From Escherichia coli (GTDB taxonomy: Bacteria; Pseudomonadota; Gammaproteobacteria; Enterobacterales; Enterobacteriaceae), in NCBI RefSeq assembly GCF_011045215.1, contig NZ_CP049201.1: DNA of 64,000 nt; one strand, 5' to 3'. A program made the translations under genes and the position numbers. Each line of letters opens with the position of its first letter. Position 1 is the stretch's first letter. Below, in pieces: positions 3,773 through 57,736 of this stretch. Under the pieces are notes generated by a model that had not been told where the DNA came from, did no database searches, and saw only the letters and a list, made by a program, of their open reading frames with translations.

Positions 3773-4052
3773 GCAGACAAGCCACGTGACAGTCGTCAGT
3801 GCGCGTCAGTGTGCTGTTTTATTTACATGTCATTATCTGACTTAATTCCGTTTTTTGCCAGCCCGGATGTCGGTGCAAATGTGTGAGTTTGCCAGCCAAC
3901 ACCATCAGAATCCTTGCTCAGCGCCGGAAAATCTTCCGGTGTTCAGCCATGCCGCTTTTCCCGTAAAAATTTTCAGTTCTGCAAACAGAGTTTATTGCTG
4001 ACCTGTTTCCCTGCCTTACGCATCCTGTACGCACCGTTTAACTCTGAAGGAG

Positions 4053-4403
4053 GTGCGTATGCGTTCTTTTCCGGCATCAGCCTGTCGTGCCGGCCGTCTG
4101 GCCGGGGCTGCGGGGATGCTGTTTCTTTTCACCCTTGCCATACCCGTTCAGGCGGCTGAACAGGATGAACTGGCCACTGCCATGCGCCAGCTTGATCAGG
4201 TGCAGGCGGCGCTGGAGCGGGCCCGGGTGGCTGCAGTTCAGTCCGGTTCGTCTGAGCCATCCCGTTACTTCTTTGATTATTCCCGGGCACGTGCCGATCT
4301 GGAGACCATCCGTAATGGCATTGACCGCTATCTCACACCTTCCCGGGCTCAGCCCCGCACAACGTCGACTGTGAACGGTCATTACCGACGGGAGCGTCCC
4401 TGA
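4053..4403 (+). CDS. Secreted ICE protein with signal peptide (conjugative transfer region protein)
   Basis: RBS GAAGGAGG upstream; N-terminal hydrophobic signal ending AIPVQA-AEQ. Confidence 0.6.
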   Translation: MRMRSFPASACRAGRLAGAAGMLFLFTLAIPVQAAEQDELATAMRQLDQVQAALERARVAAVQSGSSEPSRYFFDYSRARADLETIRNGIDRYLTPSRAQPRTTSTVNGHYRRERP

Positions 4404-4645
4404 TGGGCATGTCTGCCGTGCAGTCTTCCGCCTTTAAAGCGGCTTCCGGGGAAATGGATATCAGTGCCCTGCATCTGCTGTCACTCGGACTGCTTTTTGC
4501 CGTGCTCTTTCTCTGGGCGGCCTGGGCGCTGCTGGATGTCTGGGCGGGCTGGAGTAATGAGAAGGTCCGCAGCGCAATGCTGGGGCGCTTTTTTATCCGG
4601 CTGGCTCTCCTGCTGGTTCTCAGTATCTGGATGTTTGCCAGCTGA
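4403..4645 (+). CDS. Small ICE membrane protein (80 aa)
   Basis: Start overlaps previous stop (TGATGG); two hydrophobic helices. Confidence 0.55.
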   Translation: MGMSAVQSSAFKAASGEMDISALHLLSLGLLFAVLFLWAAWALLDVWAGWSNEKVRSAMLGRFFIRLALLLVLSIWMFAS

Positions 4646-4688
4646 GGTGAGTTGTTATCTGAATCATGATTATGAGGATTTTGTGTTT

Positions 4689-5087
4689 ATGAAGTGGTGT
4701 TTTCGTTTTCTGAAACGTCTTGTTTCTCTGCCGCACACAATGCTGTTACGCCTGTGGCAGGCCGTGTTCTCACTGTGTCTGTTGCTCTGGATGAGTATGC
4801 AACCGGCGCTGGCTGATCTGCCCACCATGGAACCTCCGTCCTCCGGCGGTGGCAGCGGTCTGTTCGGGCAGATTAAAGGGTATTCCCAGGACGGTGTGGT
4901 GCTGGGTGGTCTGATTATCTCCGCCATTGGGTTTATTGTCGTGGCGAATTCCGCAATTTCCACGTTTGCGGGAGTCCAGAAAGGACAAAAAACCTGGACG
5001 GAGTTTGGGGCCATTGTGGTGGTGGGGGTGATTCTGCTGGTTGCGGTGATCTGGCTGCTGACCAAATCGGCTTCCATCATTCTGTAA
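4689..5087 (+). CDS. Pilin-like (VirB2/TraA-like) membrane protein, 132 aa
   Basis: Signal-like N-terminus (MQPALA-DLP) followed by two hydrophobic segments; position within the T4SS block. Start taken at ATG 4689 rather than the ORF-track start. Confidence 0.55.
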   Translation: MKWCFRFLKRLVSLPHTMLLRLWQAVFSLCLLLWMSMQPALADLPTMEPPSSGGGSGLFGQIKGYSQDGVVLGGLIISAIGFIVVANSAISTFAGVQKGQKTWTEFGAIVVVGVILLVAVIWLLTKSASIIL

Positions 5088-20772: not shown

Positions 20773-20917
20773 ATAATTAATTTGTATCTACAGAATATTA
20801 ATGCTCAGGCTGGTTAACCCCGGCCTTTTTATTTTATATACAGACGTTCCTGTGAGACTATTGACATATAAAAGCCCGTCTTGCTAATCTTTTCCCGCTT
20901 TAATGTCGCTGTATGCG

Positions 20918-21102
20918 ACCATCCAAATCCCCAGTAGTCTGAGAGGGGAGCCTTCGGGCGGCTACCAGCCAATGCTTTAACGATCTGAGAGAAGCGCCTT
21001 CGGGTGATCGTAATGTTCTCGTAGCCTGGAAGAGAACGCCTTACGTGGCGGTACATCCGTTTAACCTCTGGGAACGGATATCACGGAACCGTGATTGAGG
21101 TC
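20918..21102 (+). repeat. Copy A of a ~185-bp structured direct repeat (four predicted hairpins, two with CUUCGG loops)
   Basis: Seen directly: about 88% identical to 23232..23416; contains GAGCC-UUCG-GGC and GCGCC-UUCG-GGUG hairpins plus a 7-bp stem ATCCGTT/AACGGAT. Confidence 0.8.
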
Positions 21103-21232
21103 GTGCTGGCCTGAGGCCAGTTGTTCTATGCAGGCATCCTGCAGATGCCATGATTCTTTACTTACAGGCTTATCACGCCTGCATATCAATACGTTAAGTC
21201 TTTCAGAGACATGTCTGAACGAACTGACGTCT

Positions 21233-21517
21233 TTAATCTGTTCGGGCATTCGCCCCGGGCTTCTTACGACTGTACGCACTGCATAAGGCCATCTGAAATC
21301 TGGCCGCTTGCGTGCGTATGTGGAGTTTGAAGCTGCGCGGCGTCACTTTTGTCGGCGTGTAACGATGACAAAGTGACGCATGCGCGTCTGCTTTACGAAC
21401 CCGCACAAACCGTCGCGTCACGGGATGTTTTTTAACATTTGAAGAAGTGACCAGACGTGAGAGTGTTTTTTCAACCTTCTCTGCAAACGTACAGACGATA
21501 CCGTGAATAACGTTCAT
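21233..21517 (-). CDS. Hypothetical ORF (94 aa), possibly a gene remnant
   Basis: ORF between repeat A and the recombinase; overlaps a second ORF (21061..21279) in another frame, which could indicate a frameshifted pseudogene. Confidence 0.2.
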   Translation of the reverse strand: MNVIHGIVCTFAEKVEKTLSRLVTSSNVKKHPVTRRFVRVRKADAHASLCHRYTPTKVTPRSFKLHIRTQAARFQMALCSAYSRKKPGANARTD

Positions 21518-21762
21518 CGACCGTTCTTCTTGCAGAATTTTATTGTTTTTTAAGGAGTTTTATGTAGTGAGATGCCGAACCGGCGATACCACTTATTAGG
21601 GGTGGTATCGGGGGCGACCTGGAAACAGGTACAGCGAATGCTGCAGTCGGTGTGCAACACCGGTTTGTTACCCCTCAATACCTAAACAGTCTGCGCTACC
21701 CTGGCGCTCAGGCACTCATTACCCGAAGGATCGCAACGCTTAACCGTGTCGCCAGGGAGAAT

Positions 21763-21824
21763 GCAGATGAATTTTGCTGTTGTGTTCACGGCACAACAGC
21801 AAAATTCATCTGCTGTACGTACAG
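21763..21824. promoter_or_regulatory. 22-bp perfect inverted repeat (7-nt spacer) followed by the 12-bp palindrome CTGTACGTACAG, upstream of the recombinase gene
   Basis: Seen directly: GCAGATGAATTTTGCTGTTGTG-TTCACGG-CACAACAGCAAAATTCATCTGC at 21763-21813; the RBS GAGGAGG and GTG start follow about 35 bp later. Confidence 0.6.
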
Positions 21825-21850
21825 CTGTTTAAGACAAAGAGGAGGTATCT

Positions 21851-22753
21851 GTGTCCAGACGTGAAAAATTACTGAAACAGGATTTGGTTGCTCATATCCG
21901 GAAAGACCGGGGGAGTTTCAAGAAGCTGAGTGACTATTCCCGGATCATGCACCGGTTTGCGGAAAGACTGGCTAAACTGAATATACAGATCAGTTCTGCT
22001 GCGCAGGTAAAAGTGCGGCATATTGAATTATATATGAACAGCAGGAGTGATGTTTCAAAGCGAACCAGAGAAAATGAAATGTCTGCAATACGGGTTATGT
22101 TACGTCAGGCCGGTAAACATAAAATGGCAGATCCTGAACATCCCCGTCTCAGCAATAAGGCGTTAGGTATTTCAGGAGGAAGCCGTAAAGGGACAAAGAA
22201 ATTAATTACGGATGAGCGTTTCCGGGAAATTCTTCAGCGCGTGGAAGCAAAAGATAAAGGGGTGGCAGCTGTTGTTAAACTGTCACGTTATCTCGGTCTG
22301 AGAAATGAAGAAGCTGTCCAGTCGGCCAAATCGTTACGGACGTGGAAAAAAGCGTTACAACGGGGAGATGAAAAAATAAGGGTGATTTTTGGTACGAAAG
22401 GGGGACGGGAAAGAATGACGACGGTTGTTGACCGGGATAAAGTTCTTGATGCTGTTAATTACGCACTCAAATATGCCAGTGAGCATAATGAACGTCTGAT
22501 AGACAGAGATAATCTTAAGTCGGCAATGGATTATTATCTTAATACGTTACGACGTTATGGAGAACTGAAAGGCGGAGATGAAACCGCACACAGTTTTCGG
22601 TACAGTTACGCCGCAAGTGCCATGAAATATCATATTATGAATGGTTACAGTTATAAGGAGGCACTTGCACTGACATCAATTGATCTTGGTCATGGTGATG
22701 GCAGAGGTCGATATATTGAACAGGTTTATTGTCAGTTATTAGGCTATGAGTAA
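21851..22753 (+). CDS. Tyrosine site-specific recombinase (phage-integrase family), 300 aa
   Basis: GTG start after RBS GAGGAGG; C-terminal catalytic-like motifs AHSFRYSYAA (H-x-x-R), LGHGDGRG and RYIEQVY (candidate nucleophilic Tyr). Confidence 0.75.
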   Translation: MSRREKLLKQDLVAHIRKDRGSFKKLSDYSRIMHRFAERLAKLNIQISSAAQVKVRHIELYMNSRSDVSKRTRENEMSAIRVMLRQAGKHKMADPEHPRLSNKALGISGGSRKGTKKLITDERFREILQRVEAKDKGVAAVVKLSRYLGLRNEEAVQSAKSLRTWKKALQRGDEKIRVIFGTKGGRERMTTVVDRDKVLDAVNYALKYASEHNERLIDRDNLKSAMDYYLNTLRRYGELKGGDETAHSFRYSYAASAMKYHIMNGYSYKEALALTSIDLGHGDGRGRYIEQVYCQLLGYE

Positions 22754-23109: not shown

Positions 23110-23155
23110 CTTGACATCCATCTTTTGTGCCTTAAAAATATACAGGCTAACTTTG

Positions 23156-23416
23156 TTACCTTCGGGTGACCATCCAATGTTTCGGTAGTCTGAGAGAAAC
23201 GCCTTCGGGTGACTACAGTTATCTTCGGATAACCATCCAAATCCCCGGTAGTCTGAGAGGGGAGCCTTCGGGCGACTACCAGCCAATGCTTTGACGATCT
23301 GAGAAAAGCGCCTTCGGGTGATCGTAATGTCTCCGTAGCCTGAAAGGGGACGCCTTAGAGGGTGGTACATCCGTTTAACCTCTGGAAACGGATATCACGG
23401 AACAGTGATCGAGGTC
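23156..23416 (+). repeat. Copy B of the ~185-bp structured direct repeat (23232..23416) plus an extra partial unit (23156..23231)
   Basis: Seen directly: aligns with 20918..21102 over its full length with scattered substitutions; the upstream partial duplication repeats the CCATCCAA...GGTAGTCTGAGAG...GCCTTCGGGTG unit. Confidence 0.8.
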
Positions 23417-33803: not shown

Positions 33804-34538
33804 ATGAGCTGTTTTTGTATTCATTTTAGCAGCCATCTCCATGATGGTATTGACAGTGGCTGTCCCGGTAAGAAATATGATATACACCGACCATTAAATA
33901 TGCTGGCGTTAAGCTGGCATAATACTTCTGGTCGCTATTCACTGGGGGGAAGTTATCAGAAAGATGATTCCGTGCAAATTTTAGGGGAATTAAATAAAAA
34001 ATTTAAGATCCGTGAAAGAGATTCTGCGAAAAGTCAGTTAAAATTTTTCTACGCTGAACTTGAGGGTTTTAATAAAGAAAAAAAGAGAAGGGCTGGGGAA
34101 CCTGATGATACCTATCTCCTTTCCGGACAGATATCATTTAATACACCTGATTTTGGAGCATTTGTCAGTGCGGGATATATTAATCATGCAATATCAGGAA
34201 CAAATGTAGATACCGATCGTTCTTATGTATATTCTCTGAGTATAGATCGTAATAAAGAACAAATGTACTCTTTTTAGACAGGATTTACATATAACATCAC
34301 ACCAGAATTAAGTGCAATGATGACCCATGGTTATGAATCCAGTCGTAAAGATGTAGAAATACAGGGGGCATGTATTTTGGGAGCAATGACTTACAATATC
34401 AATAATGGACCTAATATATTTCTTTCTGCAGACAGATGCAGAGAAAAAAGAGATGGCAGCCGTTTTGGTGATCGTCTTAATTATTGGGATGTTAAATTAA
34501 GTATTAGGTATGATATATATATATATGATTCTCTGTAA
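33804..34538 (+). pseudogene. Interrupted ORF: two same-frame ORFs separated by a single in-frame TAG at 34278-34280; no signal peptide
   Basis: Seen directly: 33804..34277 and 34317..34538 are in the same frame and read through apart from one amber codon; alternating hydrophobic pattern suggests a beta-barrel protein remnant. Confidence 0.35.
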
Positions 34539-34996
34539 AGAGGCAGATGCTGAATCCATTCACCCTGTAGTCCATGATTTCGAATCTGGTAGGGTGTATT
34601 TATAACTGACAATATAATGAGGTAGTTCCGGTTTCTCTTGTGTTTATAAATTTCTCATGTCTTTGTTAAGCAACTGTTTGTATTATTCTGATTGACTTAT
34701 TTTCACTGGTGTTAAGACCACAGGTATTGTCAGTATTCGAACAGTATTTCACGAAATTCTTATACAGTATTGCACGGTTTTCCGGACGTTTAAACTTCAA
34801 ATGGTTAAACTGGCTTCACAACAGGAGCTTCTGTTGTCTGTATTGTTCGAAAATACGGGGATACCGTATTTTCTGAGTTATATTATACAATCTTGTTTTA
34901 TAAAATACCCCTGTGCGAATGAACACACAGGGGTATTTTATATTTCAGTTTTTCACCATAGAGTATGAACAGATTGCAAATATAATCCCGACAATA

Positions 34997-47645: not shown

Positions 47646-47762
47646 ATTAGCCTTCCTTGTTTTTTAACAAGTTGATATTAGATTGTTATTTTTAAGTTAC
47701 TGCTCACAAGAAAAAAGGCACGTCATCTGACGTGCCTTTTTTATTTGTACTACCCTGTACGA

Positions 47763-57561: not shown

Positions 57562-57736
57562 GCAATAACGGTACGACAGCTGTGTCGTGCCGTTTGTTTT
57601 TTCTGCGATAGTCACAAAGGTAATAGTTGAAATTCCCCTGCCACCTGGCAAAATATCCGTTCAACCATCAGCTTTGCAGGACGACCTGCAAACGCGTCTT
57701 TTCACCGGGGACGGCCCCAATTCTCCGGAGCCTGAT

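Follow-up and report, generated by a model that had tools for sequence, protein, structure and literature searches.

What is the function of a long, perfect palindrome that lies directly upstream of a recombinase gene? We asked this question of a 64,000-nucleotide stretch of Escherichia coli DNA (contig NZ_CP049201.1, referred to here as the window), in which an inverted repeat at 21763-21813 lies between the structured motif EFASI and a gene of the tyrosine-recombinase fold (21851-22753) within an integrative conjugative element (ICE). A preliminary description of this locus had suggested that the repeat could be the core site of the recombinase, an autoregulatory operator, or an RNA element that sequesters a weak GTG start. 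By comparing relatives of the locus, we found that the pairing of the repeat is kept while much of its sequence changes, and that the sense strand is the one that favours the fold. In our judgement, the chances are about even that the palindrome is the DNA image of a cis-acting, sense-strand RNA stem-loop in the recombinase leader.

A perfect 22-bp stem-loop precedes the recombinase gene

The inverted repeat, on the plus strand, consists of a 5' arm at 21763-21784 (GCAGATGAATTTTGCTGTTGTG) and a 3' arm at 21792-21813, each 22 nt long and 100% complementary to the other, around a 7-nt spacer, TTCACGG, at 21785-21791. It was characterized as a long stem-loop by an inverted-repeat search, shuffles, folding and compensatory changes. 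No perfect hairpin in the 64-kb window is longer, and stems of at least 11 bp were absent from 19 of 20 mononucleotide shuffles of the window. Thus, the preliminary description was right that the repeat is perfect and that it is rare by chance. When folded, the hairpin has 22-24 paired positions and a predicted stability of -37.8 kcal/mol as RNA (z = -9.3) or -26.7 kcal/mol as DNA (z = -9.9). Its middle is AT-rich, and the stem is followed by TGTACGTACAGCTG on the plus strand and by ATTCTCCCTGG on the minus strand. The Shine-Dalgarno (SD) sequence of the recombinase gene, AGGAGG, was read from the sequence at 21839-21844 (plus strand), 25 nt from the 3' end of the hairpin, and the GTG codon at 21851 lies 37 nt from that end. 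Both the SD and the start codon are therefore outside the stem.

The palindrome is a single-copy element. No second copy of its core was found within the window, even with up to three mismatches, which agrees with what the preliminary description had noted by eye. It is present in 53 of 5,426 complete E. coli genomes, at one locus per genome (the median of two 'places' per genome is the palindrome matching itself on both strands), and a search of the PLSDB plasmids found none. Among the carriers, E. coli NC101 and NGF1 have a hairpin with 100% identity to that of the window. With one locus per genome and no plasmid copies, a dispersed repeat of the repetitive extragenic palindrome (REP) or miniature inverted-repeat transposable element (MITE) kind was ruled out. 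The hairpin did not match any Rfam family at its gathering threshold; the only matches at 21750-21826 were sub-threshold microRNA-precursor models (17.7-23.7 bits against thresholds of 50-68), and these are generic long-hairpin matches.

The stem is kept by compensatory changes

Relatives of the locus were collected from E. coli genomes, from one genome per species by protein alignment, from contigs with intermediate homologs, from a metagenome pattern scan and from annotated records; individual loci are cited by number (L002 and so on). The alignment-based search of one genome per species gave 80 loci, and a single-protein query found no relatives. The metagenome scan gave 66 matches, 16 of which were true homologs and the rest chance. 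The sequences are related to one another, and the locus counts below are not counts of independent events.

Hairpins of the window type, which we call type A, were found in E. coli, Salmonella, Phytobacter and Rahnella, at 69-100% protein identity. Among the seven distinct type A sequences, 98.1% of the alignment cells were paired, and 8 of the 22 pairs had changed on both sides. None of 500 shuffles paired as well, and slid registers were 34-55% paired. Within E. coli there are four stem haplotypes, which differ at pairs 9, 12 and 14, and every internal change is compensated: three haplotypes have 22 of 22 pairs and the L084/L173 type has 21 of 22 and a terminal G·T. The compensatory pairs include transversions, such as G-C to T-A at pair 14 and A-T to T-A at pair 8. 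No such compensation accompanies the changes in the flanks or in the loop, which reads TTTACGG in L169 and L170.

A second type, type B, was found in Pectobacterium, Brenneria, Erwinia, Hafnia, Trabulsiella and others. It has a 19-bp stem and an 8-nt loop, TCACRCRG. All cells of its nine sequences were paired (100%), and 10 of 19 pairs had changed on both sides. Types A and B have only GTTCAC in common, where the 5' arm meets the loop. The bases most conserved within a type are those of the inner stem and loop, GTTCAC in both types and TTCCGT in type B, and the middle 9-10 positions of the arms vary freely if the partner changes too. Where a pair in type A or B had changed on one side only, the result was always a G·U on the plus strand, at three pairs in type A and two in type B, a count that includes pair 13, which also shows double changes. 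Three type A cells are unpaired, at two further pairs (by reading, one C·A and two U·C), and the G·T positions 3 and 5 are stably retained in Salmonella, Phytobacter and Rahnella. Pairing is thus kept by compensatory and sense-strand G·U changes, as would be expected of a cis-acting RNA. Judged by these alignments, the stem is maintained by selection for pairing.

Unrelated hairpins of similar size occupy the same place in other lineages

We then folded the 140 nt 5' of the start codon in a sliding window at about 90 loci. In most homologs above roughly 50% identity, a single hairpin dominates the interval from EFASI to the SD. The hairpins in this slot fall into about seven unrelated sequence types, which were assigned by eye and equated with one another by position. 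They have 16-28 pairs (median about 21, by our own count over 40 hairpins), and the hairpin usually ends 0-8 nt 5' of the SD. Internal loops and numerous G·U pairs are features of types C to G. At 31 of 34 representative loci, the best hairpin was more stable than shuffled sequence at z < -2 (mononucleotide shuffles, eight per locus). An SD-like sequence was present 3' of the hairpin in all relatives. In homologs of about 47% identity no separate hairpin was found, and a 3' extension stem of EFASI directly precedes the gene. According to the preliminary description, absence of the palindrome from homologous recombinase loci would count against a function. The outcome is divided: the same palindrome is confined to the closest clade, but hairpins of comparable size are widespread at this position.

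The sense strand favours the fold

Across 40 distinct hairpins, the plus-strand fold was more stable than the minus-strand fold in 36, by a mean of 6.2 kcal/mol (Wilcoxon p = 8e-8), and the 40 hairpins contained 126 G·U pairs on the plus strand versus 27 on the minus strand. When the best hairpin was chosen independently for each strand, the plus strand prevailed over the minus strand by 36 to 2. Because a duplex site gives no reason for a strand bias, these results indicate that the element folds as a single strand and that this strand is the sense one. In the window itself, the two folds are nearly equal (-37.8 versus -36.1 kcal/mol for plus and minus). As the stems of the window and of type B are perfect Watson-Crick palindromes, the evidence on strand comes from the relatives and from the other hairpin types.

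In leading regions, the transferred strand generally serves as the template for anti-defence genes (PMC11541004). If this rule applies here, the transferred strand of this ICE would be the antisense strand, and the sense fold would not be the fold of the transferred strand (T-strand). A literature search found no usable statement on the origin of transfer (oriT) or strand polarity in elements of the ICEclc/PAPI-1 type.

The hairpin adjoins a structured, apparently non-coding leader

The stretch upstream of the hairpin contains two Rfam motifs. EFASI (RF02957) lies at 21564-21721 on the plus strand, with a score of 55 bits against a gathering score of 51.2. STAXI (RF01728) occurs twice on the plus strand, at 20904-21057, where it marks the upstream boundary of the non-coding stretch, and at 23154-23279, 3' of the recombinase gene and a small open reading frame (ORF). 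The Rfam text places EFASI downstream of STAXI and upstream of integrase genes and lists its function as unknown, and it describes EFASI as a likely trans-acting small RNA. The Rfam description of STAXI raises a role in single-stranded DNA (ssDNA). Our literature search found EFASI in one paper only. Both motifs have been detected by reverse transcription quantitative PCR (RT-qPCR) in vesicle preparations of another E. coli (PMC12370729).

Relative to the recombinase gene, EFASI keeps its position in 19 of 20 other loci scanned; in L002, there was no match at the gathering score. The order STAXI, EFASI, recombinase gene, STAXI was seen in almost all of the 20 loci, with no STAXI match in the three most distant. 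The hairpin is 3' of EFASI in the window and in the scanned loci of types A and B, L002 being without an EFASI match. The hairpin is not itself part of EFASI, as it starts at 21763, beyond the end of the model at 21721. Between them is the EFASI 3' extension stem, an inverted repeat on the plus strand that pairs 21699-21706 (CCCTGGCG) with 21750-21757 (CGCCAGGG) and ends 6 nt 5' of the hairpin. This stem is outside the Rfam model, in which its 5' half is unpaired, and it has changed on both sides elsewhere (CCCTGACG/CGTCAGG in L173 and CCCCGATG/CGTCGGGG in L008). Together with the closing helix of the model, it makes a pseudoknot.

In the window and in one distant locus, we found no plausible ORF in the approximately 1 kb between the first STAXI copy and the recombinase start. 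The ORFs between STAXI and EFASI are implausible on either strand. At 21233-21517, relatives in RefSeq carry the annotation of a 94-aa 'hypothetical protein' on the minus strand; its composition is odd, and it may be spurious. The stretch 20829-21850 is conserved at 77% in O157/O103 islands.

An SD-like AAGGAG at 21552-21557 is followed by a start-stop, ATG-TAG, at 21562-21567, where EFASI begins. AGGAG with a 2-8 nt, mostly A-rich spacer stands directly 5' of EFASI in 19 of 20 loci, mostly without a start codon. The conserved unpaired CAAUACCUCAACA of EFASI contains an anti-SD-like CCUC, and in the minimum free energy structure of the full leader CCCCUC pairs with the SD of the recombinase gene. 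It is possible that the CCUC of EFASI and the SD-like boxes could form an SD/anti-SD switch.

The two STAXI copies are direct repeats that bracket a module made of EFASI, the hairpin, the recombinase gene and the small ORF. Only two copies were found in 15-45 kb, and they share a core of about 75 nt with two mismatches. Within the STAXI repeat units is GCCTTCGGGC, the sequence of a cUUCGg tetraloop when read as RNA. This tetraloop is unusually stable in RNA, and the presence of its sequence in STAXI suggests an RNA rather than a DNA function.

Tellurite-island loci of O157/O103 keep EFASI without the hairpin or the recombinase gene. In the tellurite-resistance islands of O157, O103, O111 and O121, the stretch before EFASI and EFASI itself are present at about 77% identity, and the homology to the window ends at 21755, 8 nt 5' of the hairpin. 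Two tandem repeats of about 150 nt replace the recombinase gene in these islands (L003, E. coli O103:H2 12009, 4001-4760), and the same configuration is found in 577 E. coli records.

Two possible interactions between the hairpin and the rest of the leader were noted. CACGG in the hairpin loop (21785-21791) is complementary to CCGTG in a conserved AACCGTG (21742-21748), which precedes the 3' half of the extension stem of EFASI, and this complementarity is seen in most type B loci as well. For a possible pseudoknot between loop and AACCGTG, the variants are either uninformative (a U·G) or disrupt one pair. An alternative pairing of the 3' arm with 21535-21547 (repeats in the window) was rejected as chance because it is not conserved in L002.

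The gene encodes a second recombinase of the conjugative element

The gene at 21851-22753 (plus strand, 300 aa, GTG start) was assigned to PF12835 and PF12834 by Pfam and to the tyrosine-recombinase fold by structure prediction, which bears out the label 'recombinase' of the preliminary description. Its GTG start is not conserved, the same codon being ATG in L002 and L084. The family, with the Pfam domains PF12835 and PF12834, has more than 1,200 homologs, essentially all in Enterobacterales. R151, K183, H247-x-x-R250, H281 and Y288/Y293 are invariant in a 20-sequence alignment, and their motif similarity suggests that they represent the catalytic hexad of tyrosine recombinases. The AlphaFold model, a confident one (predicted local distance difference test score, pLDDT, 89.8), matches the folds of XerA, IntI, lambda Int, XerH and Cre and, more weakly, those of MrpR, YopR and SroF, repressors with a recombinase fold. 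A sequence search of the PDB with the family profile gave no match, so that a fold search was needed, and an NCBIfam scan of the recombinase and eight neighbouring ORFs gave none. Our literature search found no paper on the function of the PF12835 recombinase; the papers that cite PF12835 use it as a marker only.

The window contains a chromosomal ICE of the mating-pair formation type G (MPF-G; PAPI-1/ICEclc-like) at tRNA-Phe. Annotated relatives are 97-99% identical across parts of the region. Their annotation includes TraD, TIGR037xx ICE genes, a TraG N-terminal domain protein, ArdC, DUF1281, an N6-methylase, an operon like that of the cyclic oligonucleotide-based antiphage signalling system (CBASS), a UvrD-like helicase, a TraI-domain protein, taken to be the relaxase, and a tyrosine integrase adjoining tRNA-Phe, followed by dicD, dsbD and cutA. 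In the window, the helicase ORF is at 39042-40622, the TraI ORF at 40534-42180, the integrase of the element at 42238-43230 and the adjoining tRNA-Phe at 43426-43498. Because the element has its own integrase at 42238-43230, the gene at 21851-22753 is a second, distinct recombinase. The hairpin locus lies within the ArdC/methylase/anti-defence stretch of the element.

Discussion

The comparisons establish a selected, sense-strand stem-loop of about two helical turns that is the last module of the recombinase leader and includes neither the SD nor the start codon. We infer that the hairpin acts on the transcript rather than on the DNA, and most likely as a double-stranded-RNA processing or stability element. 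RNA is favoured over sense-strand ssDNA because the hairpin tracks the SD, because STAXI carries the cUUCGg tetraloop sequence, because EFASI and STAXI have been detected as RNA in another E. coli, and because the templating rule for leading regions would make the transferred strand the antisense one. The main support for processing or stability is that unrelated hairpin types share the length of the stem and not its sequence. A role for RNase III specifically deserves perhaps half of the weight that we give to a cis-acting RNA stem-loop, and the 22-24 pairs of the hairpin reach the length of at least about 20 bp of double-stranded RNA that is expected of an RNase III substrate. A plain insulator or a barrier to decay is nearly as likely as processing or stability. 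Of the three functions offered in the preliminary description, the RNA element is the one that survives in part. The sense-strand bias, the one-sided G·U changes and the compensatory changes agree with an RNA; the sequestration of a weak GTG does not agree with an SD and start outside the stem or with an ATG in relatives.

Based on these results, we propose a model for the leader in which the modules would follow one another in the order SD-like box, EFASI, EFASI 3' extension stem and hairpin. A cut of the RNase III type in the hairpin would part the EFASI RNA from the recombinase mRNA and would leave a protected 5' end beside the SD. Such a site would resemble the intercistronic sites of T7 early transcripts or the lambda N leader. 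In a simpler variant of the model, the hairpin would act as a structural insulator, holding the EFASI fold away from the SD and preventing decay that depends on the 5' end.

Known RNase III hairpins in leaders and between cistrons include the R sites of T7 early transcripts, the lambda N leader, the pnp and rnc leaders and, for int, lambda sib. Their stems span about two helical turns, may or may not contain internal loops, and lie just 5' of an SD in long transcripts. The window hairpin likewise has a stem of about two turns 5' of an SD, with its structure kept and its sequence free; cleavage here is a prediction. Lambda sib acts from the 3' side of int, whereas the window hairpin is on the 5' side of its gene. 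The hairpin shares its locus, its strand and its association with the gene with EFASI and STAXI. It differs in lying outside the EFASI model, in being lineage-specific in sequence and in its absence from the most distant homologs. We regard it not as a new kind of system but as a conserved stem-loop of a leader, joined to a motif that is known yet unexplained.

Several points weigh against a cis-acting RNA. The stems of the window and of type B are perfect Watson-Crick helices that fold almost equally well on both strands, and the G·U excess in types A and B taken alone, about five positions to one, is not significant by itself. The functional equivalence of the other hairpin types, which carry the strand bias, is assumed from their position alone; the shuffles for the slot were mononucleotide and few, at eight per locus. 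Consensus folds of types C and D recovered the structure with little covariation, as their sequences differ too little. Upstream of EFASI, the search for a promoter found none. The proposed RNA role comes from comparison, and RNase III cleavage is a guess from the length of the stem. In addition, template-switching can keep palindromes perfect without selection on RNA, and sequence alone cannot separate RNA from sense-strand ssDNA.

That last point bears on a second explanation, in which the hairpin is a sense-strand ssDNA site used in transfer or rolling-circle replication, either for priming (a single-strand origin or single-strand initiation site, ssi) or as a folded substrate of the recombinase. 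We consider this unlikely, although unequal folding of the two strands and tolerated G·T pairs are as compatible with ssDNA as with RNA. The fold is stable with DNA parameters (-26.7 kcal/mol), it lies in the ArdC/methylase/anti-defence stretch, the Rfam text on STAXI raises an ssDNA role, and IntI is among the fold matches of the recombinase model. The use of folded ssDNA by tyrosine recombinases is established for IntI on attC and for XerCD with CTX phage. In favour of priming, a review reports that ICEs can carry single-strand origins (PMC5812530). However, the sense strand would not be the one transferred if the leading-region rule holds here, and the hairpin is tied in most types to the slot just 5' of the SD, a place that a priming site does not need. 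Moreover, the cUUCGg sequence of STAXI is specially stable in RNA, and the hairpin types have no common core such as a recombinase substrate would need. The likeness to attC is that of a strand-specific folded palindrome with little sequence conservation and an associated tyrosine recombinase. By inspection, and going by the general features of attC, the window hairpin lacks attC-type core boxes and conserved extrahelical bases. Also, attC is found at cassette boundaries, whereas the window hairpin is a single copy in the leader of its own gene, which is co-directional with its neighbours. It is a long shot, in our view, that the hairpin, EFASI and the bracketing STAXI copies together are folded single-stranded sites used by the PF12835 recombinase. 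In one possible version, they would be sense-strand ssDNA substrates like integron attC or the attP hairpin of CTX phage; in another possible version, a structured leader RNA would partner the recombinase itself.

Duplex DNA offers a third explanation, a protein-binding site that serves either as a core or resolution site of the loxP/FRT kind or as an operator for autorepression. We hold it to be distinctly unlikely. The palindrome has two inverted arms around an asymmetric centre of 7-8 nt (22-7-22 in the window and 19-8-19 in type B), as would be expected of a core site with its 6-8 bp spacer, and in this it resembles loxP, FRT and dif; it also lies beside the gene of a recombinase with catalytic-type residues. 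Those residues are invariant in 20 homologs, the inner-stem and loop bases are the best conserved within each type, the repressors MrpR, YopR and SroF are among the fold matches, and a site for multimer resolution requires only one copy per replicon. The arms of loxP, FRT and dif are 11-13 bp. At 19-22 bp, those found here are about twice as long, they vary freely with compensation over 9-10 middle positions, and their one-sided changes are biased to G·T on one strand, so that neither the conserved arms nor the lack of strand bias of a core site was found. Furthermore, proteins at 50-60% identity lie behind dissimilar hairpins with internal loops and bulges, homologs at about 47% identity have none, and no partner site exists in the window, the palindrome being single-copy in E. 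coli genomes and absent from plasmids. The core site of the preliminary description is thus not supported, in view of the missing second copy, the unrelated hairpins at 50-60% identity and the strand-asymmetric folding, nor is its autoregulatory operator, in view of the same evidence and of the long, variable arms. Operator half-sites are typically 5-8 bp; a palindromic operator is disfavoured by the 19-22 bp, variable arms, and no promoter was detected at or beside the palindrome. If the repeat has no function, it could be a by-product that template-switching between the arms during replication keeps perfect, a mechanism known from quasipalindrome mutation. A single template switch would explain the transversion pairs, which cannot pass via a wobble, and the hairpin is missing from many homologous loci. 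Still, we find this very doubtful: unrelated hairpins of similar size recur in the slot and exceed shuffles, G·T positions 3 and 5 are kept and not 'corrected' in Salmonella, Phytobacter and Rahnella, and the palindrome is retained in four genera at 69-100% protein identity. An intrinsic terminator or attenuator that ends an EFASI small RNA seems highly improbable. Rfam does call EFASI a likely trans-acting small RNA, and the hairpin is the first very stable stem 3' of it, but neither strand has a T-run after the stem, be it in the window or in types B-D, the middle of the stem is AT-rich, and a terminator scan did not list the hairpin.

Two further identities were rejected. Frpo and ssi promoters are, like the window hairpin, folded intergenic elements in a conjugative stretch rich in anti-defence genes. 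Frpo has its -35 and -10 hexamers within a long stem on the transferred template strand, whereas the window hairpin is a 22-bp stem without hexamers on the sense strand. A 22-bp stem is shorter than the 28-30 bp needed to hold hexamers at 16-18 nt spacing, and the fold is on the wrong strand, the sense strand being favoured in 36 of 40 hairpins. No promoter-like site was found in 21500-21850. A protelomerase target has perfect dyad symmetry through its centre, and this identity was rejected because the centre of the hairpin, TTCACGG, is asymmetric.

EFASI and STAXI are widespread in enterobacterial conjugative elements and have had no assigned function since they were described. What is new here is a further, strongly selected stem-loop behind EFASI, with a sense-strand fold, in a leader of about 1 kb that appears non-coding and structured. 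The picture of the locus that emerges is of a long regulatory leader for a conserved, uncharacterised second recombinase. If the cis-acting RNA stem-loop is a processing site, it would link host RNase III to the expression of an ICE recombinase. If ssDNA is the active form, the hairpin would bear on the conversion of elements to duplex or on their rearrangement after transfer, and should the version with ssDNA substrates be true, the locus would be a recombination or single-strand-origin device of MPF-G elements. For annotation, the outcome is modest: an unannotated structured element that adjoins a known motif.

Other palindromes and structured elements in the window

The preliminary description had also singled out a 12-bp palindrome next to the repeat. 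It is indeed present (CTGTACGTACAG, 21813-21824, no strand) and shares the last base of the hairpin 3' arm. Perfect 12-bp palindromes number 18 in the window versus 15.6 +/- 4.1 in shuffles, and this one is broken in close relatives, reading CCGAACGTACAG in L002 and L171 and CTGTAAGTACAG in L170; it is therefore no more than would be expected by chance. Its fold is weak (z = -1.85), and it is missing in L084 and L173. With its chance frequency, weak fold and lack of conservation, it was rejected as a feature and placed outside the element.

The second-longest perfect hairpin of the window, at 34899-34942, has a 17-bp stem (TATAAAATACCCCTGTG) and a 10-nt loop. It lies between convergent ORFs at 33804-34277 (plus strand) and 34997-37549 (minus strand) and is probably a bidirectional terminator. 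In the chromosomal flank, a 14-bp perfect hairpin at 47711-47742, with arms that lead from an A-run into a T-run (AAAAAAGGCACGTC ... GACGTGCCTTTTTT), resembles an intrinsic terminator that works in both directions. Last, a match to the Guanidine-II (mini-ykkC) riboswitch was found at 57673-57719, in the chromosomal part of the window and unrelated to the hairpin.

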